Origin: Dictyostelium discoideum
Taxonomy: Eukaryota
Assembly: GCA_000004695.1 (NCBI GenBank)
Contig: CM000153.2
Span: forward strand, 4,064,001 to 4,128,000
Reading direction: 5' to 3'
DNA length: 64,000 nt
In this document: piece by piece, positions 3,973-59,338 of the stretch
How positions within the stretch are numbered: the first letter of the stretch is position 1
Layout of the letters: every line of letters begins with the position of its first letter
Position numbers and translations under genes: made by a program
Notes under the pieces: generated by a model
Database searches by the model: none
What the model was told of the DNA's origin: nothing
What the model saw: only the letters and a program-made list of their open reading frames with translations

Positions 3973-6792
3973 CTAAACACTTCCTTTTCTTAAATTTTTT
4001 CCAATTGTACTTTTTCTTGTTAAAATTCTATGACCACCAGCGGTATTACTACCACCACTATTATTATTATTAATTGGAGAAGAAGAAGTTGGTGATGATG
4101 ATATTGAATTATTTGATGAGATCGATCCAATCGATTCACGTTCGCCCATAATACCATCTTCCTCTTCTTTATTCCAAGAAAAGTTTTTAAATGGAGAATC
4201 TAAATTATAAACACTGGCAGCTGATGATTTTCTTCTTTGGAAATTAATTTTTGCATTTAATTCAGGATCACAACTTAGAGTTAAATTATTATTTGTTGGT
4301 TGTTGAGAATTATTATTTGAATTTGAATTTGAATTTGGTAATGAGATTTCTTTAATGGTTGGTTTGAATGGTGGTGTAATCATTTTACTTTCCAACATTC
4401 TCCAAGGTATTAACTCAAAGAATGGATGGGAAGAGATCTCTTCAAAGCCTTGGGTTGAGCCTAACCTTTTATTTGGGTCGGGTACCAATAGTTTCTCCAA
4501 TAAATCTTGTGCATCGGATGAGAGGAACATTGGCATTCTTAGATTACCTTGAATCATTGATTTATACATATCATTTCTGTTGCTTGCTAAAAATGGTGAT
4601 CTTCCAGTTAACATTTCAAACAATAATATACCAACAGACCACCAGTCCGCTGCCTTACCATGGCCTGCGCCAGTGATAATTTCCGGAGCCAAATATTCTG
4701 GTGTGCCACAAAATGTGGTTGCAAATCCACCTTCGCCACCATTTTTACTACCAACCACACTTGTGATACCAGATTTACTTAGACCGAAATCGGTCAATTT
4801 TATATGACCCTCCTCATCCAATAGAATGTTCTCGGGTTTAATATCTCTATAGATGATATTATTGGAATGTAGATAATGTAATGAACAAATCACCTCTGCT
4901 ATATAAAACTTTGCCAATTCCTCAGGGAATTTTCCAGCTTTTTGTAAATGATGGAATAATTCACCACCTGGTACATAATCCATACACATGAATAGGAAAT
5001 CCTCATTTTGGAATGCAAAATGTAATCTAACTATAAATGGATGGTCCATCGTTGACAATACCATCTTCTCTGTATTTGTATGTGCAATTTGTTTCTTTTT
5101 CAACATATCCTTCTTATTCAATACTTTCATAGCATAGAATTTACCTGTATCTTTTCTACGTACTAAATAAACTCTACCAAATGATCCAACTCCTAATACT
5201 TTTAATAGTTCAAAATCATCAATTGTTAATTTCTTTATACTTTGTTTATTCTTTTTATTTAAACTCTTTGATGATGATAAATCACGATCTGATGATGATG
5301 AAACTTCTAAATTATCAAAATTGATTGTACTTGAACAAACATCTTTTTTATCATTTGTTTGGGATGTGGTAGTTGAATTTGATTTTGTTATATTATTATT
5401 ATTACTATTATTATTTGATGGTAATGATGATGGTTGATTAATATAAGGATTATCTTTTTCTTTATTAATTTTACTACTACTATTACCACTACCACCACTA
5501 CCAATATTATTATCTTTATTTTTATCATCTTTATTATCATCTAAAACTATTTTAATATCAGCTTTTGTAATTGGTGTTGGTGTTGTTGTTGCTACAGTTT
5601 GAGTTGATTTCGAACTTTTCTTTAAAAGGAATTGTTTTTTCAATTCTTCTGCTCTAATTTTCCAAACTCTTGAACCCTCGGTTGAGTTACTATTTGGTGT
5701 ATTTGGCATTGCATTAATATGTTGCATTAATGCAGTTTGAGAATTAGAATTTGGTGTTAATGGACTTAATCCCATTGATTCACTTTCATTATTAAATTTT
5801 GATGCTTGTGATATTGGTAATGTTGGTGTTTTAAATGTTGACGTTGTTGTTGTTGTAGTTGTTAAATTACTATTATTATTATTATTATTATTATTAAATG
5901 AAATACTACTATTATTATTTGAACTATTTATAATACCACTACTATTAATTGATGATGAATAAAGACTACTATTACTTGCTGATGATGCTATTAAATTTGG
6001 TGGTGTTGAATTATTAGCATTATTATTATTACCACCACCGCCACTTGCCGATGAACTACTTGTACTGCTACCTGATAAACCTTGTGGATGATATGTTGGT
6101 GATGATATATTATTTTCACTAGTACTTTGAGATAATTGACTAATCATTCTACTACTACTTAACATTGGACTTGATCTATGTACACCAACACTCTCTGATA
6201 ATGGTGGTTGTGGAGGTGGTGATGATGACGTTGGTTGATTCGATGGATCACTAACATATAATCTTATTGGACTTGTATTTGGACTGGTGGCAGTACTATT
6301 CGAACCATTGCTACTAACACCACTTCCACCACCACCACCACCAGATGGTGATCCAACTCCTAATCTTTTAAATTCCGATATTATACTTTTGGCTTGTTCT
6401 GGTGTTTCTGCTTCAAAATGATATCGATGTAAAAATGTTAATGAAAATTTATGTGAATCAGTTGGATCTTGCTCAATACTATAAACATCTGAATTTCTAA
6501 CAAACCATTGACATGATTGTCCATTTAAATTTGAAACTCCTAATGAACTAACTGCCAATGTTCTAAAAATAATTAAATATAAATAAATTATTAATTATTT
6601 ATTATTATTATTATTATTATTATTGATTTTTTTTTTTTTTTTTTTTTACCTTTGTTGTCTTTTTCCATATGCATTTACTTTTATTACATCATATTGAGTG
6701 CAATACCTTTCTTTATGATGTGATAAATCTCTTTCTTTTTTCAAACCTGGAAACCATGAAGTTGGTGTCTTTGTTTGTTTTTTAAACGACAT
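3973..6792 (-). CDS. AGC-family Ser/Thr protein kinase (PKB/SGK/S6K-like) with a PH-like N-terminal domain and a ~450 aa low-complexity linker; exon 1 about 6792..6650, exon 2 about 6562..3973
   Basis: Kinase motifs are intact: GVGSFGRVY, AMK, YRDIKPENILL, DFGLSK, activation-loop TFCGTPEYLAPE, an AGC C-terminal turn motif and hydrophobic motif FKNFSW. Upstream exon: ATG at ~6792 encodes MSFKKQTKTPTSWFPGLKKERDL...KRQQ, with a GTAAAA donor in phase 2 joining an acceptor at ~6563 that keeps the frame (R-TLAVSSLG...). Confidence 0.8.
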
Positions 6793-14434: not shown

Positions 14435-17400
14435 ATGAAATCAAATACCAATATTAGGGTTTTACTCGTGTCTGGTTTAATTTTGATTTTTATATTTTTA
14501 GGAATAAAATTCGAATTTATAAATAAAAATAATAATGATAAAATTGGAATAAATAGAAAATTAGAATTTAGTTATTTTACTAAAAATAATAATAATAATA
14601 ATAATAATAACTTTAAACAAGATCAATTAAAAAATAAAAAAGATAAAAGAATTTTATTAAAAAATGAAATAATTGATACAAACATTAAAAAGAATATTAA
14701 AAAAAATAATCAAAAGAATAATAATGAAGAAATTTTCCCAAATTTTATTTCTAGATTATTAAAATCAAATGATGATATGGAAATCCAACAATTTACATAT
14801 AGAAAGAGTCATTATATAGTTCAATTTAAAGATCATATAAATGATGAAACTAGAGAACAATTTAAGCAATTTTTAATTAATACTGATATTGTGTTAGATG
14901 AACAACCATATCAATCACATATAGTTAATTATATACCACATGATAGTTTCTTAGTATTAATGAATGATGAACAAAGTAATTTATTATCAAGTAAAGAATG
15001 GGTATCTTGGATTGGTGAGTTTGAACCATCAAATAAAATACATTTAAATTATAATGAAAAATCAATTGGATTGCCAGTTTATATTAAATTAAGTGATTCA
15101 ACAAATTCATTAATTCAAAGATGGGAGAATACATTAAATTCAATTTTAACATCATATAATTCAAAAGTTAAATTAACATTAATTAATCAAAAGAAATTAA
15201 AATCAATTGTATATTGTAATGATGAATCATCATCACAATCATCATGTTCATTAGTTAGTTCAGAAAAGTTAGTTTATCAATGGATTTCAGAACAAAGTGA
15301 AAGTAATTATATTGAAAGATCAGAGAAATTTCAAACTGCAAATAGATTATCACCAAAGGCAATTTTCGGTACAAAAGATACATTGGTTAATAATGATAGA
15401 ATTGATATTCCATTGAGAGGTAAAGGTCAGATATTGAGTATTGCCGATACTGGTTTAGATGGTAGCCATTGTTTCTTTTCAGATTCAAATAATCCAATAC
15501 CATATAATAGTGTAAATTTAAATCATAGAAAAGTTGTAACTTATATTGGTTCTCTACATGATAATGAGGATTATGTCGATGGTCACGGTACACATGTTTG
15601 TGGTTCTGCAGCAGGTGCACCAGAGGATTCTTCATTGGCTATTTCATCATTTAGTGGTCTTGCAACTGATGCAAAGATTGCATTCTTTGATTTAGCATCC
15701 GACCCAAGTAATAATGAACCAGTTCCACCAGAAGATTATAGCCAATTATATCAGCCATTATATAATGCAGGTGCAAGAGTACATGGTGATTCTTGGGGTT
15801 CTCTTTCAATACAAGGTTATTTGGGTAGTTATTCCGATGATGCTGGTAGTATTGATGATTTCCTTTACACTCATCCAGATTTCATTATTCTTAGAGCTGC
15901 TGGTAATAATGAACAATATTCATCATTGCTATCACAAGCAACAGCCAAAAATGTAATTACAGTTGGTGCCGAACAAACTACTCACGAAAGTTATACCACT
16001 GATGCATTGGAATATTCAAATTTTGAAACAGTAGCAAAGAGTACATTAAATTCATTATGCCAATCATTTGATGATAAATATTGTACATATACAACTGCTC
16101 AATGTTGTACAGAATATTCAACTGTTAAAGGTTTATCAGGCTGTTGTACATCTTATATTAAAAATTCATACGCTTCAATATTTTCCTCACAACCAGAATT
16201 ATATAATGAGAATAATATTTGTTCATTCTCTTCAAAAGGTCCAACACATGATGGTAGATTGAAACCTGATATAGTTGCCCCTGGTCAATATATTACATCG
16301 GCAAGATCAAATGGTGCAAATACAACCGATCAGTGTGGTGATGGTTCTTTACCAAATACAAATGCACTATTATCAGAATCTGGTACATCAATGGCAACAC
16401 CATTAGCAACAGCAGCAACAACAATTCTTAGACAATATTTAGTTGATGGTTATTATCCAACTGGTTCAATTGTAGAATCAAATAAATTACAACCAACTGG
16501 ATCATTATTAAAAGCATTAATGATTAATAATGCTCAGTTATTAAATGGTACATTCCCATTATCATCAACAAATACAAATCCATCAAATGCAGTATTTGAT
16601 ACATTTGCAGGTGCAAATTTTGTTCAAGGTTGGGGTTCACTTAGAATGAGTGAATGGTTATATGTTGAATCATCAGGTGTTAAACCAAAACCATCAAGAT
16701 GGGTTGGTATTGGTGAATTAGGTAAAGATAAAAAAGCATCAAATTGGAAAGAATATAGTTTATCAACTGGTCAAAATGTTTCATATTGTTTCACATATAA
16801 ACCATCATCATCAGGTAGTAATAGTGGTGGTATACCAAGAATTGTTGCAACATTAGTTTGGACAGATCCACCATCATATTCTGGTGCAAAATTAAATTTA
16901 GTAAATAATTTAGATTTAACAATGACAAATACTGAATCAGAATTTATATTTTATTCAAATTCTGGTGGTTCATCATATAATGGTACAAAAGGTACAACAT
17001 TACCACTACAAGATTCAATTAATAATGTTGAAGGTATAATCTATACACCAATTAATACCAAATCAGAAATTTCTTTTAGATTTATAATTGCAGGTACCAA
17101 TATACCAATTGGACCACAAAATTTCTCATTTGTATTCCATGGTGAAAATGGTGAATTTGATTGGGCTGATAGTTGTATGCAATGTAATCCAGATGATACA
17201 CAACCTTGTTTCATTGAAAATGGTGTTGGTTCTCAAACTTGTGGCGATGATTATTTATGGGGTCGTTGTTTAGTACAATCTTGTAATAACAATTATAATT
17301 ATAATTCAATCTCTGATAAATGTTCAAAATTCTTATCATATAATTATATCGTTATCATTGTTGCAGGTGGTACAATGTCATTGATTATCACTGTATTAAT

Positions 17401-19912
17401 TTTAATTAAATATATGGAATATAAAGAAAATGGTAATAAATTTAGTTTAAAAGAATTTTTTAGTGGAGTTTTAGGTACTGGTAAAAATGTTAGTGGTGGT
17501 GGTAAAGGTGGTAGTGGTGGTAGTGGTAGTGGTAGTGGTACACTTAAAGATGGGACTATTGATGATGGTACAGGTATTCATGTTAGACCAAAACCAAAAG
17601 ATGCACCAGTTACACCACCAGATCTTTACAGTTTATTATCACCATTCATTATAGAGATAACAATTTCAACAGCTTGCTCGTTGGTGGCAACAGCAGCAAG
17701 TATCTTACAACCATATTATATTGGTCAAATTATTCAAGATATTCCAACAACTAAAGGTATTGGTGATTTAAGAGATCAATTTATTATTATATTTTTATTG
17801 GCCTTATTGGAATTTGTTTTCTCAACAATCAGTTCTTGGATCTCTGGTATTGTAAATGAAAAGATGGTAATGAGATTACAAAATAAAGTATTCCGTGCAT
17901 TGATTGCTCAAGATATGGGTTTTTTCCAAAAGAATAGTGCTGCAGTTTTAATGAATGTTTTAATCGTTGATACACCAATGTTAAGATCATCACTCACTGG
18001 TATACTATTATCAGTTTCAGTTGGTATTTGTAAATTTGTTGGTAGTTTGGTATTCATTTTCACAATTTCATGGAAACTTTCATTAGCATTCTTTGCAACC
18101 GTACCCGTATTGGCAATTGTAACACAAGTTCAATCTAAATTCACTAAAAGATTAACACGTAGATTATTATTCCACAATTCAAAAGCATCACAACATGGTC
18201 AAGAATCAATGGTCAATATGCATGTAGTTTCAAATTATTGTAAACAAGATAGAGAGATTGCAAAATATTCAGAGCAATTAATGATGGTTTTCCAAATTTC
18301 AAGAAGATTAATTATTAATAATACCTTTGCAGCTTCAATTAAATGGTTAATGGTTGAATCATTAGCTTTCATTATTCTTTATTTCGGTGCTTATCTTGCA
18401 ATTCAAAAGCAATTCACTGTTGGTCTTTTAGTATCATTCTCTTTATACATTGGTTATGTAATTGATTCTTCAACAACATTATTTGGTGTTTATTCAAGTT
18501 ATGTTCAATGTTTAGCTTCTGCAACTAGAGTATTCTTAATTTTAAGATCTGCACCAAGAAAAAGAACAACTTTAGAGGAAGAAGAACTTGATAATATTAT
18601 TGATACTAATCAAGATAATAATAATAACAATAATAATGATGATATTAGTGATAGTAGTAGTGATGATGATGATGATAATAATAATAATAAAAATAGTAAA
18701 AACAATAAAACTAAAAGTGGTGAATCGGATGATAGCTCAAGTGAAGATGCTGAATATAAAAAGAACAAAAATAAACGTAATAATGGTAAAATGACTACAA
18801 AACTATCAAATTCACCACCATTAGTAGGTGAAGGTATAGATAATAATAATAATAATAATAATGATAATAATATAAATGATGATAATAATCAACAAGATCC
18901 AAATAATAATAATAATGAAATTGATGATGATGGTGATGATGATGGTGATGATGATGATGAAGGTGAAGATGAAAATAATAATAATAATAATAATGATGAT
19001 CCAAATGATAATAATGGAATTGAAATGTTAACAGAAAAACAACTTAGAAAAAGAAAAAGACAAATGAAAAAAGAATTTTATAAGAAAACTGGTATTTCAT
19101 GTTTAGAATTAAATTTAATTCCATCAGCTTATACAGAGTTAACAGAATGTAGAGGTGAAATTGAATTTAAGAATGTATCATTTTGTTATCCATCAAGAGC
19201 AGATGTTGGTGTATTGTATAATATTGATTTGAAATTTGAATCTGGTAAATGCTATGGTTTGGTTGGTCCATCGGGTAGTGGCAAATCAACATTGTTGGAA
19301 TTGATTTCCAGATTCTATAGTCTACATCCATCAGGTGGTAAAATTTACATGGATGGTATTGATATTGCAAAAATCAGACCAAGTAATCTTAGAAGTTTCG
19401 TTACAAACGTTCATCAACATCCTTTCCTATTCGATGCTACAATTAGTGAAAACATTGGTTACGCATTGGATAATCCAACTCAAGAGGATATCATTGAAGC
19501 CGCCAAATTGGCAAATGCTCATGAATTCATTCAATCATTACCAAAACAATATGATACAATGTTAACTGATGGTGGTAATTTATCAGGTGGTCAAAAGAAA
19601 AGAATTGCAGTAGCTCGTGCAATTTGTGCAAAGAGAAAGATTATGTTATTGGATGAAATCACTGCTGAATTAGATCCAGAATCTGAAGAAGCTATCAATA
19701 AAAGTATTAAAGTTTTAACTCGAGGTCATACCGTTGTAATGGTAGCTCATAAAGTTGCTGCTGTCCGTGATTGTGATAAAATCTTTGTTTTAGATAAAGG
19801 TCAAATCGTTGAACAAGGTACTCATAATCAATTAATGGCTAAAAAAGGAAAATATTATAGAATGTTTGCTTTTTCTGAAGATGATGATTATGCTCCATTA
19901 TTAGTTTTATAA
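14435..19912 (+). CDS. tagD: Subtilisin-like serine protease fused to an ABC-B half transporter (Dictyostelium tag family), copy 1 (1825 aa)
   Basis: Signal/TM N-terminus, an I9-like propeptide, an S8 catalytic triad ([28 protein letters not shown]), a Cys-rich region, a single TM, a six-helix ABC exporter TMD, and an NBD (Walker [10 protein letters not shown], signature [10 protein letters not shown], Walker [12 protein letters not shown]-loop MVAHK). The symbol is assigned from my recollection that tagD is 1825 aa. Confidence 0.9.
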
Positions 19913-21056: not shown

Positions 21057-21333
21057 ATGAAATTTCATTTTTCATCTAACAAATTATTGTTGATATCAGG
21101 TTTAATTTTATTAGTATTGGTAATAGGCATAAAGTTAGATATATTTTTAAGTAGTAAAAGTACCGAATATATAAAATTCAATAATAATAATAATCATTTT
21201 AAAAGAGATAAAAGAATTTTATTACATAATGAAATAATTGATACAAATAATAAGCCATCAATTAAAAATAATCAAATATTTATTAATGATAATGATAATA
21301 ATGAAAATATATCACCAATTTTATTAAGAATAT

Positions 21334-21366
<33 letters not shown>

Positions 21367-24300
21367 GTGATGATAAATCAATTTATAAAAAGAATCATTA
21401 TATAGTTCAATTTAAAGATCGTATAAATGATGAAACTAGAGAACAATTGAAGGAATTTTTAATTGGTACTGATATTGTATTGGATGAGCAACCATATCAA
21501 TCACATATAGTTCACTATATACCACATGATAGTTTCTTAGTATTAATGACTCAAGAACAAAGTGTATTATTATCAAGTAAAGAATGGGTATCTTGGATTG
21601 GTGAATTTGAACCATCAAATAAAATACATTTAAATTATAATGAAAAATCAATTGGATTACCAGTTTATATTATATTAAGTGATTCAACAAATTCATTAAT
21701 TCAAAGATGGGAGAATACATTAAATTCAATTTTAAAATCATATAATTCAAAAGTTAAATTAACATTAATTAATCAAAAGAAATTAAAGTCAATTGTATAT
21801 TGTAATGATGAATCACCATCACCGTCATGTTCGTTAATTAATTCAGAAAAGTTAGTTTACCAATGGATTTCAGAACAAAGTGAAAGTAATTTCATTGAAA
21901 GATCAGAGAAATTTCAAACTGCAAATAGATTATCACCAAAGGTAGTTTTCGGTACAAAAGATACATTGGTTAATAATGATAGGGTTGATATTCCATTGAG
22001 AGGTAAAGGTCAGATATTGAGTATTGCTGATACTGGTTTAGATGGTAGCCATTGTTTCTTTTCAGATTCAAAGTATCCAATACCATTGAATAGTGTAAAT
22101 TTAAATCATAGAAAAGTTGTAACTTATATTACCACATCAACAAGCGACGATAGTGATAAAGTGGATGGTCACGGTACACATATTTGTGGTTCTGCAGCAG
22201 GTACTCCAGAGGATTCTTCAGTTAATATTTCATCATTTAGTGGTCTTGCAACTGATGCAAAGATTGCATTCTTTGATTTGGCAAGTGGTTCATCAAGTTT
22301 GACACCTCCATCGGATTTGAAACAATTATATCAACCATTATATGACGCAGGTGCAAGAGTGCATTGTGATTCTTGGGGTTCTGTATCAGTAGAGGGGTAT
22401 ACAGGTAGTTATTCATCAGACACTGCTTCAATTGATGATTTCCTTTTCACTCATCCAGATTTCATCATTCTTAGAGCTGCTGGTAACAACGAGCAATACC
22501 TATCACTACTCACTCAATCCACTGCAAAGAATGTTATTACCGTTGGTGCTCATCAAACAATTCATGAAAATTATTTAACTGATGGTCCAAATTATATAAA
22601 TTATCAATCATCTGTCGATATAAATCAAGAGTTAATATGTGATTTCGATAGCAGATATTGCAATTACACAACTGCCCAATGTTGCTTAGAATCAAACGCA
22701 ACCACTGGTTTAGCAAGTTGTTGTCCTACTTTACTTAGAAAAAGTGTAATTGACGCTGCAAATACTCAACCATTATTATACAATGAGAATAATATTTGTT
22801 CATTCTCATCAAAAGGTCCAACACATGATGGTAGAATGAAACCTGATTTAGTTGCCCCTGGTGAATATATTACATCGGCAAGATCAAATGGTGCCAATAC
22901 AACAGACCAATGTGGTGATGGCTCTTTACCAAATACAAATGCATTATTGGCGATATCTGGTACATCAATGGCAACCTCATTTGCAGCAGCAGCAACAACA
23001 ATTCTTAGACAATATTTAGTTGATGGTTATTATCCAACTGGTTCAATTGTAGAATCAAATAAATTACAACCAACTGGATCATTATTAAAAGCATTAATGA
23101 TTAATAATGCTCAGTTATTAAATGGTACATTTCAATTGATTACATCATCAAGTATTACATATCCATCAAACCAAGTTTTTGAAAATTTTGCAGGTGCAAG
23201 TTTAGTTCAAGGTTGGGGTGCTATTAGAATGAGTAATTGGTTACATGTTGTCAATAATAATAATAGTAATAATAATAATAAAACATCAGATGGTATAACT
23301 AAATTTGTTGGTATTGGTGGATTAGATTTAAGATTAGTGAAACCAAATCAATGGAAAGAAGAAAGTTTATCAACTGGTCAAAATACATCATATTGTTTCA
23401 CATATAAACCATCATCATCAAGTAGTAATAGTGGTAATAATATACCAAGAGTTGTTGCAACATTAGTTTGGACAGATCCACCATCATATGCAGGTGCAAA
23501 ATTTAATTTAGTAAATAATTTAGATTTAACAATGATTTATTATCGTGATAATGGTTCAACTATATTTTATTCTAATCAAGGTGGTTCATCATTTTTAGGA
23601 TTAGCACCAACTCAAGATACATTGAATAATGTTGAAGGTATAGTTCATAATCCAACGGAACCAATGACTTATAGATTCATGGTAGCGGGTACAAACGTAC
23701 CAATGGGACCACAGAATTTCTCATTCGTATTTCATGGTGAAAATGGTGAGTTTGAATGGGCTGATAAATGTCCACAATGCAGTCCAGGTCAAGTATTAGC
23801 ATGTCCAGTTGAAAATGGTATTGGTACTCAACTTTGTACAAGTGATTTACAATGGTCAAGTTGTTTAATTCAGTCATGTGATAATAATTATAATTATAAT
23901 TCAATTAAAAAAAGATGTGATAAATTCTTATCATACAACTATATCATTATGATTGTTGCAGGTGGTACAATGCTATTGATTATCTTTATTTTGTTACTCA
24001 TTAAATATCAAGAATATAAAGAGAGTAAAAAAGATAGTTTCCGTAGATTCGACGATGGTACAGGTATTTTCGTTAGACCAAAGGATAAAGACGCAAAAGT
24101 TTCATTGGCTGACCTTTATAATTTAATTTCACCATTCATTATTGAATTGGCGATTTCAACAGCATGTTCATTGGTTTCAACAGCAGCAAGTATCCTACAG
24201 CCATTCTATATTGGTCAAATTATTAATGATATACCAACTGCAAAACATATTGGTGATTTCAAGAGTCAATTCATTTTAATCTTCATATTGGCAGTTATAG

Positions 24301-26282
24301 AATTTGTTTTCTCAACAATCAGTTCATGGATATCTGGTATTGTAAATGAAAAGATGGTAATGAGATTACAAAATAAAGTATTCCGTGCATTGATTGCTCA
24401 AGATATGGGTTTTTTCCAAAAGAATAATGCTGCAATTTTAATGAATGTTTTAATTTCTGATACTCCAATGTTAAGATCGGCACTCACTGGTATATTATTA
24501 TCAATTGCAACTGGTTTATGTAAATTTGTTGGTAGTTTAGTATTCATTTTCACAATTTCATGGAAACTTTCATTGGTATTCTTTGCAACCGTACCAGTAT
24601 TGGCATTTATCACTCAAATCCAATCACAATTCACTAAAAGATTAACTAGAGCATTATTATTCTACAATTCAAAAGCATCACAACATGGTCAAGAATCAAT
24701 GGTTAATATGCATGTAGTTACTAATTATTGTAGACAAGATAAAGAAATCATTAAATATACTGATAATTTAAATAATGTTTTCCAAACCGCTAGAAGATTA
24801 ATCATTAATAATACTTTGGCCTCTTCAATTAAATGGTTAATGGTTGAATCATTGGCTTTCATTATTCTTTACTATGGTGCTTATCTTGCAATTCAAAAGC
24901 AATTCACTGTTGGTCTTTTAATTTCTTTCTGTTTATACATTGGTTATGTTATTGATTCAACAACAACATTATTTGGTGTTTATGTAAGTTATGTTCAATC
25001 TCAAGCTTCTGCAACTAGAGTTTTCATGATTTTAAGATCTGCACCAAGAAAAAGAACAACTTTAGAAGAAGAAGAAGCTGATAGAAATAATGGTTTAGGT
25101 GGTGGTGGTGGTAATAATAATAACAATGACGATGATGATGATGATGATAATTATAATGGTAAAGGTAATGATAATGGTAAAGGTAGTGATGATCCAAATA
25201 ATAATAATAATAATACAACATTAGAAAATATTGATGATAATGGTGAATTAACAACAGTGCAACCAGTTGAATTAACAAAAAAACAATTAAAGAAACAAAA
25301 AGAAAAAGAACAAAAAGAATATTTCAAGAGAACTGGTATTTCAGTTGTTGAAATGTCATTAATTCCATCAAGTTATATTGAATTAACAGATTGTAAAGGT
25401 GAAATTGAATTTAAGAATGTATCATTCCGTTATCCAACTAGACCAGATGTACAAGTTTTACATAATATCAATATGAAATTTGAAACTGGTAAATGTTATG
25501 GTTTGGTTGGTCCTTCAGGTAGTGGTAAATCAACATTGTTGGAATTGATTTCAAAATTCTATCCACTTCGTGATGGTGGAAATATCATAATGGATGATAT
25601 TGATATTGCAAATATTAGACCAAACAATCTTAGAGGTTTCGTTACATGTGTTCATCAAAATCCTTACTTATTCGATGCTTCAATTAAAGATAACATTGGC
25701 TACGCATTGGATAATCCAACTATTGAAGAGGTTATTGAAGCTGCCAAATTGGCATATGCTCACGAATTCATTAAAGATTTACCACAACAATATGATACCG
25801 TCTTAGGTTCAGCTGGTAGTTTGTTATCAGGTGGTCAAAAGAAAAGAATTGCAATTGCTCGTGCAATTTGTGCAAAGAGAAAGATTATGTTATTGGATGA
25901 AATCACTGCTGAATTAGATCCAGAATCCGAAGAAGCCATTACTCAAAGTATTAAAGTTTTAACTCAAGGTCATACCGTTGTAATGGTAGCTCATAAAGTT
26001 GCTGCTGTCCGTGATTGTGATAAAATCTTTGTTTTAGATAAAGGTTATTTAGTTGAAGAGGGTACTCATGATGAACTCATGGAAAGAAAAGGAAAATATC
26101 ATAGAATGTTTAATAATGAAAAAGATGAGGAAGAATTATTAAATAATTTAGGTTTACCATCTAATAATGAAACTAATAATGAAAATAATAATGAAAATAA
26201 TAATAATAATAACAATAATAATAATAATAATAATAATAATAACGATGATAATAATAATCAAGTTGTTGGGGAACAAGTTTAA
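21057..26282 (+). CDS. tagC: Subtilisin-like serine protease / ABC-B half transporter fusion, copy 2 (1741 aa)
   Basis: Same architecture as copy 1 with a shorter linker; the catalytic Ser motif reads [12 protein letters not shown]; symbol assigned by length (tagC 1741 aa). Confidence 0.9.
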
Positions 26283-27462: not shown

Positions 27463-33183
<5,721 letters not shown>

Positions 33184-43837: not shown

Positions 43838-46603
<2,766 letters not shown>

Positions 46604-48360: not shown

Positions 48361-49195
48361 TTATTTCGAATTGATTGTTGAATCTTTAATTTCATTTAAA
48401 GTTTTTAAAATTGAATTAAAAGATGGACGTAAATTTGGATCAGCATTCCAACATTTAGTGATTAAAGAAGAATACATTCTATTACAATTTTGATTGATTG
48501 ATGGTCTTAAACCTGATAAGATATTATCTTCGAGAGTGCTCATAAATTTAAAATCGAACTCATCAAAAGGTAACTCTAAATGATAGCACTCCCAAAGAAT
48601 CATACCAAAACTATAGATATCGGATTTTTCATTGTATTCCATTCCTTTTAATACTTCGGGTGATTGCCAAGTTGGATTATCGACAACCTTTGAAGAGAAG
48701 TTTTGAACAATTGATCTTGATAGACCAAAATCTGAAACTTTTGCCGAGATTTCATTTGGATTGGTTGGATGAGAAGCCAATAGAATATTTGGACTTTTTA
48801 AATCACGATGTACCAATGGTGGTGTGATATTATGTAAAAACGCCATACCAGAGGCAATATCAGTGACAATCTTTAATAACATTTGCCAATCTAAAACTTG
48901 ACCATCTTCTTTTTTCTTTTTCAAAAATGATGATAAACTACCTATATCCATATATTCCATTACGATTGCATATGGTTCAAAACAAAATCCTTTCATCAAT
49001 ACGATGTTTGAATGTGATAAACCACTCATTAACCAAACTTCTCTTCTAAATTCATTAATTGCATTTAATTTACCACTTGAAATTTGATTCATTGAATCTT
49101 CACCTTGTGATGAATTACTTGATAATGAACTTGTTGATAAATTTCTTTGTAAAATCTTTGGTTGTTGCTGATTTTGTTGTTGTTGTTGTTGTTGC

Positions 49196-49277
<82 letters not shown>

Positions 49278-50367
49278 GATTTTGTTGAGTTTGTTGTTGT
49301 TGTTGTATATACAGTTTATTATTATTATTTAAATTATTTAAATTATTATTTAAATTATTATTATTATTATTATTATTTACAATTGGTGGTGATAAAGATG
49401 AAGTTGAAGAAGATAAAGAAATTGATAATGAAGAATTTGAAGGTGAAATTGTAAGACTATTTAAATTATTAAAACTTGTTGAATCGATTAAATCCATTCT
49501 TTCGAAATTGAATTGTTTAATTGCAACTGTATTATTTTTATAGATACCTTTATAAACACGACTAAAACCACCAACACCAATTTCCTCTTGATAGATTAAA
49601 TCCTCTTTTGAAACTTTTTTATTTGAAGATACTGAAGATAGAGTGATATCTGGTGAAATTTTACAAAGGGAAACCAATTTCATAGTGATTGGACATTTTG
49701 TATGTGATTCACCTTTACCAAAAGTTTCTTCAATTAAATCAATTGGGAAAAGGTGTGGTAAATCACGACATTCGCAACTACATGAGCAAGGTATATAAGT
49801 TTGTGATTGATTAATTTGATAATCCTTTAAGATGGTATCAACATTTTCTAAAACGATTTGAAATAGTTTTGCACATGCATCAAATTCATGGCCTCTTACA
49901 CGGATTTGTAATTGTTGAGTCACTGTATCAAATTCAACCAATGTGCCACAACTTGACATACTATCTTTGATGTTTTCACGATAGGTTTGAGTTTTTCTAA
50001 AGAGAATACCAGTACTCCAATAAACGATTGGTTCCATCATATAGAGGAATCTAACCATTACCCTTTCGAAACAATTCTTTGCTGAGATATTTCTAAATTG
50101 ATAATATCTTCCAATTTGATGTTCATCTTCACCACTCCATGTGTCCCAAAGTGAAGCTAAATGTGATGGTTTACCATTTGGTAATAAACATGGTATAATT
50201 ATACGATTAAATGATATATAACTACCATTTTGTAATAAATTACCACTACTATTACTATTACTATTTAAAATACTATTATTACTTAATGAAGATGAATTAT
50301 TTTCAATTGATTTTAAATTTTTTAATGAATTTCTTAAAAGTTTTGGTGATGTTGATATTGGTTGTGG

Positions 50368-50402
<35 letters not shown>

Positions 50403-51105
50403 CACTCTTATTATTATTATTATTATTTGGATTAGTAAATACAGATTGTGAAGAATTTGATAAACTTAATGAAGGTGAAGATGAAATTTCAGCTGATAAG
50501 GTTACAACTGTTGGTAATGGTGAAGATGATGATCTTGATTCAATTGAATAACTCATTGAATTTAAACTATTTTCTTTTGATAAATTTCCAAATGATTTTT
50601 GTTGTTGTTGTTGTTGTTGTAATTGTTGTAAATTTGAATTATTTTTTAAAGTATAAAGAATTTGATATCTTTCTAAAAGTTTTAATAATTTAATATGAAA
50701 TTGTTCTGGTACAATATTTGGTTTCCAAATATTTTTTAAATTACTTAATAATAAAATACCATCGGAATTAATGAATGAATGTTTTGCTAATAATAATTTA
50801 TAGAAACAATCACTAAACCATTGTGGATCTAAAATGACGAAATCTTTAAGTGAAGATTTTGAATCTTCAAACCAAATAATTGAACCCCATCTATTTAATG
50901 TATTTGTAGCACGTACTAATTTCTCATATGATGAAGTTGTAAAATTTGATAACTTTGCAATATTTTGATATTCATCCCATGTTACAATTGGTCTTTTCTT
51001 TGCTTCCTCTTGTAAATTAGTTTCTAATGTTATATAAATGCTTGGTATTCTTTCATTTAACCAATTTGTTGTTGAAATTGAATTACTTTGTTTATTATTA
51101 TTATA

Positions 51106-51140
<35 letters not shown>

Positions 51141-53474
51141 TTTGATTTAATAAAGTTTGAATTATTTCATTTTTTAATAAATCAATATTTCTTAAAGTTG
51201 TTGAAGAAACACCAATTACACCAGTGACTTCTAATGAACGTTGAGTTAAATATTGATCAATTTCATTTAATGGTACTAAAATATCACCACCATATTGATT
51301 AAAAGTATCTATATGAGTTGCAACTATATAGATTGGCGCATTTGGTGCTTTCTTTTTAATTGATTCAACCCAAAATTCCAAACCACTATGTGATAAATCT
51401 TTATTGATATCATAAGTAACTAAATAAAATGCACGTTCTGATAAAAAGAATTGATGAGTATGATAATAGACATCAATTGATGGCATTCTAAAATCATAAA
51501 TCATTAATTTTACATTTCTTTTTGTTGGTCTTTTCTTTTCTGGTGTTGTCATTGAAGAACCAAATGAATCTTTTCTTTGTGGTTTTAATTCTGATGTTGA
51601 TGATGATAGTTGTGTTGGTGGTGGTAAAGTACCAGTTGATAAATTTAAATTACTTGATGAAGTCATAATACCATTTTGTTGTTCAGGTGGTAAATCTAAT
51701 TTTAATTGAATTATTTCAATTGGGTCATTTAAAGATACTTCAGATGATGTAACTTTTTTTAAGAAATTAGCAGATTGTCTAGATAATGATTTAGTTTGAG
51801 ATTTTGTTAATGCTTTTACCAATGATGAACGACCAGTTTTTTCACTACCCAACACCATTAGTTTTATATGTGAAAGTGTTTCAGTACCTTCGAATAAATC
51901 TTTAAGATAACCAATTATATGAGTGAACCCTTTTGATGTGATTTCTTTTGGTGGTGATTTAATTATATCACGAGAGAAATCCAATTGTTCTAATAATGGT
52001 AGCGTTGAAAGGAATGAAGGTAACTCATTGATTTTATTTGACCCTAAAACATTCAAAGATTTCAATCTAACCAATAATCCCAACTCTTTTGGAATTTTAT
52101 TAATCTGTTTATTGAATGATAAATCCAATTTCTCTAAACTTTTCAAAGACCCAATCGATTCCGATATTGATGATAACTGATTGGCAGCCAATGATAACTC
52201 TTCTAAATTTGATAATTGAAAGACTACATTTGGTATAACTTGAAAGCAATTATGAGATAGTATTAGCTTAGTTAGGAGCTCCAATCTTGAAAAACTACTT
52301 GGTAATGTCGATAGTTGATTATGTGATAGATTACATGATTCTAAATTATAAAGTGTTGCAATTGATTCCAATTGATTACTCTCTGATAATTGATTGAATG
52401 ATAAATCAATAATACGTAAAAATTTACTAGTATTGATAATGGTTGTCGGTATAATTGAAATACATTTATGAGTTAAACATAAATCATCCAATCTCCTCAT
52501 TGCAACATGATTAATAATTGCTTCTGGTTTTGTTAAAAATTCATAAAAAACATTACCACAATCTTCAACAATTCTATTATCAAATGCTGGTATAGATGAT
52601 GTTGATAATGATAATGGTGATGATGAATATAATTGATTATTACTATTACTACTACTATTTAAAACTGATGCTGGTAATGTTGGTACTAAAAATCCACTAC
52701 CACTACTACTATTATTTAATAATGATGATGATGTTGTTGTTGTTGTTGTTGTTGCTGCTGTTGTTGATAATGATAATGATGATGACATTGTTGCTGTTGT
52801 TGATGATATTGATATTGGTGCTGTAAAACTTAAATTTAAAATGCTACTACTACTACTACTATTACTATTTGATTGTGATTGATTACTTAACTGTTGTAAT
52901 GATATTGAAGAAGGTATTGTAGTTGAAAGTGTTGAAGACATAACACCACCACCACCATTATTATTATTATTATTATTATTTGAAGAATTAAAGATTGTAC
53001 CAACTTCAATGAAAATATTTAAATGCATTAATGCAGAAGCTATTTGAATTGATTCTTTTCTTGTGACTTCTAATTTCTTTACTAGCCAATCAATTAATTG
53101 TGAACCTGAAAAACAAGAAATTGTTGTACCAGCTGCTCCTTTTTTCTTTTTTTGTAATTTTAAACCTTTATCTCCATTCATTAATTCTTGACTCAATTGA
53201 ATTAATTCATCTTTAACTAATGTCACTGTATTTAAATCTTCTAATACTACTTTTGATAATTCATTTATACTATATCTATGATGTTTTTTATTAAAACTAT
53301 TACTATTATATGTTGAATTTGAATTTGTATTTGTTGATGCTAATGATGATGATGTTGATGTTGTTGACGATGATGATGATGATGTTGATGACGATAATGA
53401 TGCTGTTACTAATACTGGTGGAGGTACTGATGATGTACGTCTACTACTATTATTATTACTATTACTATTATTAC

Positions 53475-53540
<66 letters not shown>

Positions 53541-53820
53541 TTTTATCAACAGCAGTTGATGATTTACTGCTTGATTTACCAATACTACCAATTTTAGTAG
53601 ATACTGGGGTTATAGGTGCTGTTGCTGTTGTTGCTGTTGATGTTGCATTATTATTATTATTATTTATATTATTATTATTTTTATTATTATCAAATTGATA
53701 AAATATATAATCATCTTTAAATATTGGATCTGCACCAGATGTAACATTACAAATAATACCCTAGTGGTAATTTTTTTGAAAAAATATAAAAAATGGTTTT
53801 TGAATAAATCTTGTGTTAAT

Positions 53821-53860
<40 letters not shown>

Positions 53861-54101
53861 TTTTTTAAAAAAAAAAAAAAAAAAGATTTATACTTACTGC
53901 ATCAAATAAAGTTTGACCTAATTTAATTGCATCTTCTCTTGTTTTTATATCTGGACAATTTCCAAAAATCCAATCAACGCATTCATAACCAACAAAAACT
54001 GATCTGTATGTTTTATATAAATAAGTTCTATCTTTAATTTGAAGTCCATCACTTGATTGAATTTTATCTTTCAATTTATTTAACTGGTTATAATCAAACA
54101 T
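48361..54101 (-). CDS. Roco-family (LRRK-like) protein: DEP-DEP-LRR-Roc-COR-kinase (TKL); exon 1 about 54101..53897, intron about 53896..53761, exon 2 about 53760..48361
   Basis: Exon 1 (ORF 53865-54101) encodes the first half of a DEP domain (FVGYECVDWIF...REDAIKLGQTLFDA). The GTAAGT donor and an acceptor at ~53761 continue the DEP domain in frame (GIICNVTSGADPIFKDDYIFYQF). A second DEP follows (ISCFSGSQLIDWLVKKLEVTRKESIQIASALMHLNIF), then LRRs (LSHNQLSTLP.. repeats), a Roc-like GTPase region, COR, and a kinase (IGVGGFSRVYKG, VAIKQF, HRDLKSPNILL, DFGLS). Confidence 0.85.
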
Positions 54102-55611: not shown

Positions 55612-57103
55612 TTATTTATTGATTTGAGCAAAAATTAATGATAAAATTAAAACAATTATTGCCAAAATGAATAACGCCTTAATTACTATGTATAGATATA
55701 AAAAAAAAAAAAAAATTAATAAATCTTGGAAAAAAGATATATATATATTTATATTTATTAAACTTACATTTTGTTGAATTTGATTTACTACCAAATCCAA
55801 TTCTATGAGATTTACAATTATAATCAGCAGAGGAGGAGAAGATGGTAGAGTTATCAGGAGAGAAACAAGCACCGGTTACGACGAAATCATGAGGTTCCCA
55901 TTTATCTAGTGGTTTGAAAGTTTCAGAGTTGTAGGCAGTGATTTTGGCATCGGCAGTTACGATTACTATGGTTTTATTATCGGATGATAGGGCGAAACAG
56001 GTGTTATGGTAGATGTCGACCTCTTTGAATGACTCCTCTTTACCAGTTGTGAAATTCCATTTAGATAAAACCGTACAACCAATTGAATTCTTACCTTTGG
56101 GAATCGACTGAGCGGTATAACAATACAACCCATCCGAAGTGAATTTACAACCACGGAAAACCAATTTAGGTTTTTGTTTATGTAATAGAGTGAATTCGAT
56201 TTTACCATTCAATAAATTGATTATCTTTGCCGAGCAATCACGTGACGTTGTCAATATATGGCTTGATGCAGGGTGAATATCGATATCAGTGATCTCGCCA
56301 CTATGTTGGGGTGATATAATCTTTATGAAATTCAATGATGGTAAACTCCAAACTTTAATTAAATTCTTATCATCAACAATTATAATTCTATCACCATCTT
56401 TATTAAATTTAATTAACTTAATCTCTGTTGATAATGATGTTAATGTTGTTGAGCATAGTGATGGTGTTGATGATGCTGATGCTGATGATGGTGTTGTTGT
56501 TGTTGTTGACTCATTCTCATTATTGGTATTGGCTTCATTTGATTTTACGTCATTTAATGATGGTGATGATGAGGTTGCTTTAATTGCCAAATGGTATGCA
56601 TTTGATGGAATGTTTTTATTGATATCAAATTGTAAAACTTTTTCGAGTTTGTCGTTTTTATAATCTACAATATGGCAAATTGTGCCAACTGGGTAGGCAA
56701 TTTGATTTTTACTATCATTGAATGTAACGTAGGGTATACAATCTTCAGTATCCATTTGATCGATTAATTGAAACTCTGATGAGGATGATCCTTCTAAATT
56801 CCATTTTAATAATGTTATTGCATTTGGAACACCTGTTTTTGAATTACCACCACCACCACCTGTTACAATATATGGACTCTTTACATTTGTTGATGAACTA
56901 CAACAAAATACTGGATAATTTAATTTAATTTTATCTGTAGTTTTAATTGGTGCTTTTGTTGTAGTTGTTGTAGTTGTAGTTGTGATTTTCTTATTATTAT
57001 TATCATCATTATCTTCTTTTTTTATATTTCTTTGCTTTAATTTTGATGATGATGAAGATTCTTTTTCTTGTTTATTTTCTTTTTTTTTTATAGTTTTAGA
57101 CAT
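55612..57103 (-). CDS. Sec12/PREB-like WD40-repeat protein with a C-terminal transmembrane anchor; exon 1 57103..~55768, micro-exon ~55685..55612
   Basis: WD40-like repeats (KLIKFNKDGDRIIIVDDKNLIKVWSL..., ITDIDIHPASSHILTTSRDCSAKIINL...). The GTAAGT donor after ...SKSNSTK (phase 1) joins a cATAG acceptor to give ...LIKALFILAIIVLILSLIFAQINK*, a tail anchor. This matches the overall Sec12/PREB layout, but the family call is tentative. Confidence 0.55.
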
Positions 57104-58116: not shown

Positions 58117-58471
58117 AATTTTATTCTTTTTTTTGATGAAGTTATAAGTGGTGATGTTGAACCTTTTGGAACAACCTGTTCATCTATAGCCTCATTTAAA
58201 AATGGGTTGATTAAATTATTATTATTATTATTATTGTTATTATTATTATTATTATTATTATTCTGGAAAATAATTATTTTTATAAATAATAAATATTAGT
58301 TTAGATTCAATTTTAATTTTTAATTTTTAATTTTTTTCCCAAATTTAAAAATTTACATACGTTTAAATTTAATGGTTGTATTATTGGCAAATTATTATTA
58401 TTTAAATTATTATTGTTTAAATTATTATTATTATTTATATTATTATTATTATTTATATTATTATTATTTGA

Positions 58472-58534
<63 letters not shown>

Positions 58535-58778
58535 TAAATTATTTAAATTATTGTTTAGATTATTATTACTATTTGCAACAGCCAGTCTCCTTAATAAATC
58601 TCTTTCATTTCTAGGAGTTGTTGGGTTTGATGTGGAATTATTAGGAGTATTTAAAGCACTCAAGGGCGGTGGTGGTTGAGGAAATTGCATTTGTGGTGCA
58701 ACCATAGGTGTTGTAGGAACACTAAATGAGTTTGGTGTCGAAAAATCGTTATTATTATTATTATTATTATTACTATTA

Positions 58779-58819
<41 letters not shown>

Positions 58820-59338
58820 TACATTGGTTTGTTGTTGCTGTGGTAGTTGATCAACTACACTATTATTATTATTTGAAATATCCACTCTAAGATGTGGATG
58901 TTGGTGGTGTTGTTGTTGACCATGATGATGTTGAGGTGAAAGAGTAATATTATTATTATTATTAGGTATTGTTGTAGTAGTTGTTGTTGTTGTTGTAGTT
59001 GTTGTTGTAGGTGGTAATGAGTTTATAGAGATAATTGTATTTGGAGTCATCATTGGTTGAAGTGGTGGAGTTGTAATGGTATTTGGATGATTTAATAGGA
59101 ATGCAGAAGGTTGTGGTTGTAATGGTTGTATTGGTTGATTTACAACTTGATTTTGGTGTTGTTGTTGAAGTTGTTGTTGCTGTTGTTGGAGTAATTGTAA
59201 TTGTTGTTGATGATGCATTTGAATTTGGTGTAATGATAACAAGGATGGAGATGATAGAGGAGATGGTGAGTTTGGATCATTAGGTGGTATTATAAATGGT
59301 GGTACAGTTTGATATTGTTGAGATAACATTGGTTTCAA
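58117..59338 (-). CDS. Gln/Asn/Pro/Thr-rich low-complexity protein; main exon 59338..~58361 with a possible 3' exon ~58264..58117
   Basis: 341-aa ORF (poly-Q, poly-T, poly-N); a GTATGT donor after ...QPLNLN and a TTCCAG acceptor give ...NNNNLINPFLNEAIDEQVVPKGSTSPLITSSKKRIKLNV*; the 5' end is unresolved. Confidence 0.35.

Follow-up and report, generated by a model that had tools for sequence, protein, structure and literature searches.

A central unresolved question about LRRK2 is how its Roc domain controls its kinase, and in canonical members of the Roco and LRRK2 type the output of the kinase depends on nucleotide binding (PMC3976973). What becomes of such control when the Roc domain departs from the GTPase consensus is a question raised by a gene in the stretch of DNA analysed here, which is 64,000 nucleotides long (contig CM000153.2, positions 4,064,001 to 4,128,000 of the forward strand) and is referred to below as the window. 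The gene, on the minus strand, is roco8 of Dictyostelium discoideum or of a very close relative, and its product, Roco8, has the domain order DEP-DEP-LRR-Roc-COR-kinase. The answer favoured here, with a confidence slightly above even, is that the Roc domain of Roco8 would neither switch between GTP and GDP nor hydrolyse GTP efficiently, and that a guanine nucleotide is probably still bound as a structural cofactor.

The G motifs of the Roco8 Roc domain

In Ras-like G domains the Thr of switch I and the backbone NH of the DxxG Gly touch the gamma-phosphate and drive the switch between GTP and GDP, the P-loop Lys bridges the beta and gamma phosphates, the P-loop Ser/Thr and the G3 Asp hold Mg2+, and G4 and G5 read the guanine base. 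Set against a canonical switching GTPase, Roco8 departs at G1 (GxxxxGK[ST]), at the G2 Thr and at G3 (DxxG), and agrees at G4 and G5. The elements in question are given below, with the confidence of the predicted structure expressed as the predicted local distance difference test (pLDDT).

51151..51876, minus strand: Roc G domain with two inserts, residues 697-938 (Pfam Roc, alignment with LRRK2 and M. barkeri, AlphaFold2, Foldseek)
51826..51849, minus strand: G1/P-loop GSEKTGRS, residues 706-713; Arg712 (CGT, 51829-51831) at the Walker-A Lys position, Gly residues and Ser713 kept
51712..51801, minus strand: lengthened switch I region, SQTKSLSRQSANFLKKVTSSEVSLNDPIEI, residues 722-751; Asn746 at the expected position of the G2 Thr
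51529..51684, minus strand: variable low-complexity insert between beta2 and beta3, residues 761-812; 15-48% identity to orthologues, pLDDT <50
51478..51498, minus strand: G3/switch II equivalent YDFRMPS, within MIYDFRMPS, residues 823-829; Asp kept, Met826 at the Gly position, no Gln
51307..51321, minus strand: G4 ATHID, residues 882-886; guanine-specificity Asp kept and invariant in Roco8 orthologues
51199..51213, minus strand: G5 GVSST, residues 918-922; all orthologues read G[VI]S[STC]x, canonical Dictyostelium paralogues VSC[TK]

It had been proposed from the sequence alone (the original prediction) that Arg replaces the Walker-A Lys and that switch II has no Gly, and alignment to solved structures bears out both proposals. 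The G1 stretch reads LMVLGSEKTGRSSLVKAL on the minus strand, and in a phmmer comparison with the PDB 'klmvlgsektgrsslv' falls opposite 'KLMIVGNTGSGKTTLL' of LRRK2 and 'kvllvGdgeaGKtSLl' of M. barkeri Roco2, which sets GSEKTGRS opposite GxxxxGK[ST] in the form of GNTGSGKT (LRRK2) and GDGEAGKT (M. barkeri Roco2). At G3 'iydfrmpsidvyyhthqffl' falls opposite 'vWDFAGREEFYSTHPHFM' of LRRK2 and 'fWDFGGQEIMHATHQFFL' of M. barkeri, with YDFRM facing WDFAG/WDFGG and a Met at the position of the Gly. These alignments to solved Roc domains therefore identify Arg712 with the Walker-A Lys and Met826 with the DxxG Gly. Two residues are inserted in switch II before DVYYHTHQFF, as counted from the conserved THQFF anchor, and the switch II helix YYHTHQFFLSERAFY is retained, nearly identical to that of canonical paralogues. 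In switch I the canonical Roc S-T-D-G-I-D-I corresponds to L-N-D-P-I-E-I in Roco8 (MAFFT, hmmalign), the alignment of this loop being less certain than that at G1 and G3, and residues 722-744 are predicted to be disordered, with low pLDDT.

The G4-like THID is present as had been announced, within ATHID; THxD is the form that [NT]KxD takes in Roc domains. The range given at that time, 51600-52100, contains the P-loop, whereas G3 and G4 lie just below 51600. The codon of Arg712, CGT, has none of its three positions in common with the Lys codons AAA and AAG, and D. purpureum has this codon too, so it does not stem from a base-calling error. It could be supposed that canonical motifs lie elsewhere, hidden by the low-complexity inserts. 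This was rejected, as no canonical GK[ST] or DxxG was found in the Roc domain by a scan of the whole protein for GK[ST] and of residues 690-945 for D..G: the protein has a single GK[ST], which belongs to a low-complexity tract of the N-terminal part (residue 129), and the range scanned has a single D..G, DSFG at 799, which falls within a disordered insert ahead of beta3 and is not conserved in orthologues. The Roc of Roco8 combines the fold of a G domain with loss of one or more catalytic G motifs, as a pseudoGTPase does, the class of a pseudoGTPase being determined by experiments that show a lack of GTP hydrolysis, of nucleotide binding or of both. That normal binding or hydrolysis of GTP is lacking, as was also proposed originally, we infer from the sequence.

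Orthologues and the wider family of Roc domains

The Roco8 set comprises ten sequences, that of the window and P0001-P0009, and spans Dictyostelium, Polysphondylium violaceum, Tieghemostelium, Heterostelium and Acytostelium, among others. All ten lack the G3 Gly, the motif being DF[KR][FM], and all ten lack the G2 Thr, with N, A, Q or L in its place. The critical P-loop residue is Lys in four (P0005, P0006, P0008 and P0009), where GxxxxGK[ST] is fully canonical, and Arg in the other six (the window sequence, P0001-P0004 and P0007). The ten sequences agree without exception in the glycines of the P-loop, in Ser/Thr713, in the Asp of G3 (Asp824) and that of G4, and in the Ser of G5, and basic residues are kept throughout (10/10) at position 4 of the P-loop (Lys/Arg709) and in the DF[KR]x of switch II (Arg825). 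No covariation between Lys/Arg in the P-loop and Lys/Arg in switch II was seen among these orthologues.

A simple distance tree was built by neighbour-joining with bootstrap from 807 well-aligned columns. The Roco8 clade (the window sequence and P0001-P0009) was separated from Pats1-like outgroups with 100% bootstrap, the Arg sequences of Dictyostelium and Polysphondylium formed one clade with 82%, and the Arg-bearing P0007 clustered with the Lys-bearing P0008 and P0009 with 97%. The simplest reading of these sequences is that the gamma-phosphate sensors disappeared a single time, ahead of the diversification of the Dictyostelia, and that Lys is ancestral at the P-loop position; there would then apparently have been two independent changes from Lys to Arg and never to another residue. 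That only Lys or Arg ever occupies this site suggests that a positive charge in contact with phosphate is still selected. The sister of the Roco8 clade, with 100% bootstrap, is P0022 (Logan assembly, 1950 residues), which has DEP, Roc-COR and kinase. Its P-loop is the canonical GIDKSGKS, and at G3 it reads WDFDS (Gly to Ser) followed by an insertion of ~15 residues in switch II. The missing Gly of P0022 hints that G3 was lost before the Dictyostelia.

The rarity of these departures was judged from two samples of Roc domains, one of ~85 domains from two homology searches and one of 145 further representatives drawn from the best 150 of 15,024 proteins at E<=0.001 in an exhaustive profile search. 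In this second sample the P-loop reads GK[ST] in all 131 of the 131 that could be aligned there, with Arg in none (0/131), and DxxG is present in 136 of 141; the sample of ~85 gives the same picture. Among the Roc domains examined, Roco8 sequences are the sole carriers of Arg at the Walker-A Lys. The G3 Gly is rarely missing, its loss being confined to all Roco8 sequences, the sister P0022, a handful of others and the Roco9-like and Roco10-like paralogues. Position 4 of the P-loop is basic as well in the otherwise canonical Roc domains P0115, P0118, P0124 and P0055.

Conservation and predicted fold

Selection was judged from the amino-acid identity of each domain to its orthologues, since synonymous sites are expected to be saturated at the distance of D. 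purpureum and P0001 is too similar to be informative. The Roc core is 61-79% identical, COR-A 58-86% and the C-lobe of the kinase 69-80%, as against 15-48% for the inserts. The Roc core is conserved like COR-A and nearly like the kinase, and on these identities the Roco8 Roc is under strong purifying selection and not decaying. An AlphaFold2 model of Roc and COR-A (residues 676-1115, from a 40-sequence alignment) has a pLDDT of 82.3 and a predicted template modelling score (pTM) of 0.79, and its Roc has the Ras-like topology beta1-alpha1...beta6-alpha5, with pLDDT mostly >85. The model has two segments of low confidence, the alpha1-beta2 loop (switch I) and the low-complexity insert between beta2 and beta3. 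The top Foldseek matches are all RocCOR structures, namely M. barkeri 4wnr (E=1e-17), LRRK1 8e05, LRRK2 and C. tepidum 3dpu/6hlu. The lengthened, Ser-rich switch I loop, KSQTKSLS[KR]QSAxFLKKV, is conserved among most Roco8 orthologues, and from its sequence it looks rebuilt and not degenerate.

Probable loss of the switch and the alternatives to it

A Roc that does not switch is favoured because both gamma-phosphate sensors and the catalytic position of switch II are lost and the elements that serve the base and Mg2+ are kept. Conservation of G4, G5 and the Gly and Ser/Thr residues of the P-loop suggests that switching and hydrolysis have gone, and not necessarily nucleotide binding, and a P-loop site that admits only Lys or Arg fits a retained need for contact with phosphate. 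The Roco8 Roc keeps the residues with which a G domain holds the guanine base, the alpha and beta phosphates and Mg2+, namely the Gly and Ser/Thr residues of the P-loop, the Asp of G3, THxD and the Ser of G5. Of the 'loaded-spring' switch neither gamma-phosphate sensor is left: the Thr of switch I and the Gly of switch II are missing, as is the Gln/Arg of switch II, and in the lineage of Dictyostelium and Polysphondylium the P-loop Lys has in addition become Arg. Roc would then be a hydrolysis-deficient, pseudoGTPase-like module that holds its nucleotide, perhaps weakly, as a structural cofactor and forms with COR a fixed scaffold for a catalytically competent kinase. Control of the kinase may have moved to the two DEP domains, through recruitment to membranes or partners, and to the LRR, and may also be exerted through the lengthened, conserved and Ser-rich loop of switch I and through the disordered inserts, where phosphorylation or binding may take place. 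On its sequence, the kinase of Roco8 is probably not under the control of a normal GTP/GDP switch.

A number of considerations weigh against this view. Its functional claims (loss of switching and hydrolysis, retention of nucleotide binding, a shift in regulation) are ones that we infer from motif logic established for Ras and LRRK2, and a change from Lys to Arg in a Ras-like P-loop could abolish binding and not merely weaken it. It is also conceivable that folding or contacts with COR, and not nucleotide binding, account for the conservation of G4, G5 and the P-loop glycines, or that Lys/Arg709 and Arg825 could provide unconventional phosphate contacts or catalysis, so that the domain might still cycle. 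The AlphaFold2 model contains no ligand, and the two events of Lys to Arg depend on a simple neighbour-joining distance tree in which one node has just 82% bootstrap.

An account in which no nucleotide is bound, at least in the Arg lineages, and in which Roc is a purely structural or dimerisation module for COR and kinase (a class-i pseudoGTPase) is unlikely, although three of the five G motifs are affected (G1 Lys to Arg, G2 Thr lost, G3 Gly lost) and a fully degenerate Roc is tolerated in the Roco9-like P0017 and P0021 and the Roco10-like P0035. LRRK2 with the mutation K1347A or T1348N no longer binds nucleotide and its kinase activity is impaired, which would fit such an account, the P-loop Lys change that was tested, with loss of GDP/GTP binding, being K1347A and not Lys to Arg (PMC3976973). 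GxxxxG, Ser/Thr713, Asp824, THxD and the G5 Ser are, however, invariant across the Dictyostelia while they have decayed in the truly degenerate paralogues, four orthologues have a fully canonical GxxxxGK[ST], and the Lys site changes only to the conservative Arg, apparently gained twice. It is also improbable that Roco8 is an unconventional working GTPase, in which GTP would be bound and hydrolysed, and the kinase gated, by means of the basic DF[KR]x and/or position 4 of the P-loop (GxE[KR]xG). There is an analogue for the latter in hGBP1, which has an in-cis arginine finger in its P-loop (GLYRTGKS), and the presence of basic residues at both positions in 10/10 orthologues, the strong purifying selection over the whole Roc core and the near identity of the switch II helix to that of canonical paralogues would all accord with a working enzyme. 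We know of no Ras-like GTPase, however, that still switches when the Thr of switch I and the Gly of DxxG are both gone; position 4 is basic in canonical Roc domains too, so that no specific compensation is indicated, and the residues of the P-loop and of switch II do not covary.

The departures might also be put down to faulty sequencing or assembly, to a mutation of one strain or to a pseudogene, as the exact sequence of 1867 residues is missing from the protein collection and the roco8 region is repeat-rich. These possibilities have next to no probability and were rejected on the strength of the orthologues, the codon analysis and the intact open reading frame (ORF): a frame of 5.6 kb is intact and its intron canonical, the motifs recur in P0001, from an independent assembly of D. 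discoideum, and in a further eight species, CGT is three changes away from a Lys codon and common to D. purpureum, and the Roc core has 0 substitutions relative to P0001.

If the non-switching reading is taken further, Roco8 might be a natural kinase of the Roco/LRRK type that has been without a GTP/GDP switch throughout the history of the Dictyostelia, and probably for longer because the sister P0022 also lacks the G3 Gly. The sensor would have been replaced by the rebuilt switch I loop and the disordered inserts, taking input from phosphorylation or partners, and the P-loop Lys would have drifted to Arg twice since only a charge that holds phosphate was needed. This extended version is put forward tentatively and is somewhat doubtful as a whole.

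Comparison with known systems

Roco8 has the core LRR-Roc-COR-kinase architecture and fold in common with the Dictyostelium Roco family, LRRK2 and LRRK1. The best matches of its Roc-COR among solved structures are M. barkeri Roco2 RocCOR, LRRK1, LRRK2 and C. tepidum Roco, and its kinase is closest to Roco4. GxxxxGK[ST], the switch I Thr and DxxG are present in canonical Roco members, whereas Roco8 is without all three, and it differs from them further in its two N-terminal DEP domains, its lengthened switch I loop and the insertion of 2 residues in switch II. A Roc that departs from the GTPase consensus is also found in the Roco9-like and Roco10-like paralogues of dictyostelids, which have no Roc match in precomputed Pfam lists; the architecture of roco9 has been described as RhoGAP/myotubularin-LRR-Roc*-COR-kinase (PMC2927912). 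In the Roco9-like P0017-P0021 (RhoGAP, myotubularin, LRR, COR and kinase) and the Roco10-like P0035 there is no recognisable P-loop, DxxG or G4, so that the family does contain fully degenerate Roc domains. Decay is complete in P0017, P0021 and P0035, where G1, G3 and G4 are all unrecognisable, whereas the changes in Roco8 are limited to the sensors of the gamma-phosphate and, in certain lineages, the Lys of the P-loop, with the contacts to the base and Mg2+ conserved.

Among pseudoGTPases, the pG1/pG2 domains of p190RhoGAP (PMC5593906), AAGAB (PMC12490416) and the septin pseudoGTPases (PMC10731463) resemble Roco8 in that the fold of a G domain is kept inside a larger protein while catalytic or switch motifs are lost, and they act as structural or interaction modules. 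In these class-i examples hardly any G motif is left and nucleotides are no longer bound, whereas Roco8 keeps G4, G5 and most of G1, so that by its sequence it more likely belongs to a type that binds nucleotide without hydrolysing it or without switching. The nearest functional analogues of Roco8 are these pseudoGTPases together with two further groups. The RGK small GTPases (Rad/Rem/Gem/Kir) have no switch I Thr and have DxWE for DxxG, and they bind guanine nucleotides with no classical switch. They differ from Roco8 in being stand-alone proteins with an intact P-loop Lys, unrelated to Roc and with other replacement residues. The 'GMS' immunity-related GTPases of the IRGM type show a lineage-specific replacement of the Walker-A Lys (GKS to GMS) and are still functional regulators; they belong to the dynamin-like IRG family, have Met and not Arg, and retain the other G motifs.

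Roco8 is an annotated gene of a well-studied family, and degenerate G domains are a recognised category. roco8 was not mentioned in the literature searched, a body that did not extend to the primary papers on the Roco family (van Egmond & van Haastert 2010, Bosgraaf & van Haastert 2003, Marin et al. 2008), and no paper in it was found to link Roco proteins with pseudoGTPases. The reviews PMC6337361, PMC6320773 and PMC4104024 and a survey of dictyostelid GTPases (PMC8923023) do not mention the degenerate motifs of Roco8. No published note of the motif loss was found in this search, and the primary alignments of the family may already show it.

Experiments on LRRK2 are confounded because mutations that do away with nucleotide binding make the protein unstable as well (PMC3976973). 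Roco8, in which both gamma-phosphate sensors are missing and the kinase is intact, has been under stable selection for hundreds of millions of years and is found in a genetically tractable organism, and it thus offers a natural means of separating the role of Roc-COR as a scaffold from its role as a switch. If the extended version of that reading is true, a kinase without a switch would be a ready-made natural control for what Roc-COR contributes beyond nucleotide cycling, and orthologues of the Lys and Arg types provide a built-in comparison of the contribution of the Walker-A lysine. As more degenerate Roc domains exist in its paralogues, Roco8 is a useful detail and not a new kind of system.

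Gene structure and domain architecture

The Roc domain falls in a minus-strand ORF at 48361-53541 of 1726 codons, upstream of which the frame remains open to an AG acceptor at 53761. The window is strongly A/T-rich (G+C 13-33%), and a GTAAGT donor lies at 53897, immediately after a first exon, giving the following gene model.

53898..54101, minus strand: roco8 exon 1, 68 codons, with the ATG at 54101 (MFDYNQ...); matches the N-terminus of the D. discoideum homologue P0001
53761..53897, minus strand: roco8 intron, 137 nt, GT..AG, A/T-rich; splicing restores the frame
48361..53760, minus strand: roco8 exon 2, 1799 codons and the stop; includes the 1726-residue ORF 48361-53541

The spliced product of the two exons (54101-53898 and 53760-48361) has 1867 residues, and the splice forms a complete DEP domain across the exon junction (PF00610, 74.4 bits). 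An exact-sequence look-up found no identical entry for this product in the protein collection. The closest database protein is P0001, a 'hypothetical protein' of D. discoideum with 1836 residues, from which the product differs in the lengths of repeats and in ~10 substitutions outside them, 0 of these in the Roc core. The D. purpureum orthologue P0002 is 70% identical and is annotated 'roco8, ROCO family protein', and it is from this annotation and the similarity to P0001 that the gene is therefore identified as roco8. Its place in the Roco8 orthogroup is shown by closest relatives annotated roco8, a single clade and the common layout DEP-DEP-LRR-Roc-COR-kinase. The domains beyond Roc are as follows.

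53692..54047, minus strand: DEP domain 1, residues 19-91, with the intron inside (PF00610, E=6.7e-21, 74.4 bits)
52999..53166, minus strand: DEP domain 2, residues 267-322 (PF00610, E=8.2e-9, 35.7 bits, cut-off 32.7)
51973..52434, minus strand: leucine-rich repeats, residues 511-664 (Pfam LRR_14, LRR_8, LRR_4)
50632..51045, minus strand: COR-A, residues 974-1111 (PF16095, E=3.2e-24, 85.9 bits, cut-off 35.3; pLDDT ~90 or higher)
49765..50292, minus strand: COR-B-like region with approximate boundaries, residues ~1225-1400 (PF25497 COR-B precomputed in P0002-P0009)
48385..49602, minus strand: protein kinase domain of the tyrosine kinase-like (TKL) type, residues 1455-1860 (PK_Tyr_Ser-Thr, E=5.3e-51, 173.8 bits)
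49075..49494, minus strand: low-complexity insert of 140 residues in the kinase N-lobe, residues 1491-1630, between VAIK (beta3) and the alphaC helix

The product had been recognised as a Roco protein from its sequence, and this identification is upheld by Pfam matches for LRR, Roc, COR-A and kinase and by the RocCOR fold found with AlphaFold2 and Foldseek. The Pfam Roc match scores 32.9 bits (cut-off 27) and covers the C-terminal part of the domain only. A Ras-like Roc is directly followed by COR, as in the Roco family, and an LRR N-terminal of Roc and a kinase of TKL type C-terminal of COR are as in Roco kinases of the LRRK and Dictyostelium type. A Pfam scan of the ORF gave no match for COR-B in the window protein itself; the COR-B-like region is 60-74% identical to orthologues. 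The kinase had been thought catalytically intact, and this agrees with its motifs (the Gly-loop GVGGFSRV at 1463, VAIK at 1480, HRD at 1719 and DFG at 1745) and with its alignment to the structure of the Roco4 kinase, 4f0f (E=3e-47). The insert in its N-lobe is poorly conserved (12-39% identity to orthologues) and contains a polyglutamine tract of ~47 residues at 49161-49306 (GTT x48.7 on the plus strand).

Other open reading frames in the window

Directly upstream of roco8, at 55679-57103 on the minus strand, there is an ORF with a WD40 beta-propeller, and the EukProt gene models of the orthologues P0006 and P0007 have many Pfam matches to WD40/beta-propeller families. It is probably the case that the WD40 neighbour has been fused into these two models, which would mean that synteny is conserved. 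On the plus strand three tandem paralogous ORFs of 1741-1906 residues (14435-19912, 21057-26282 and 27463-33183) each have Pfam matches for a subtilase (Peptidase_S8), ABC_membrane and ABC_tran, and we take them to be the protease/ABC-transporter fusions known as Tag proteins in Dictyostelium (a tagB/C/D-like cluster). The 921-residue ORF at 43838-46603, also on the plus strand, has PG_binding_1 (putative peptidoglycan-binding) as its sole Pfam match and may be linked to the handling of bacterial prey by the amoeba. Ordinary neighbours on the minus strand are an ORF with DnaJ and Sec63 Brl domains at 803-2836 and an ORF of 861 residues with a canonical Pkinase domain at 3973-6558. A further minus-strand ORF of 341 codons at 58313-59338, with no Pfam match, consists of nearly nothing other than polyasparagine, polyglutamine, polythreonine and Pro-rich low complexity and coincides with a strong spike in GC skew at 58-60 kb.

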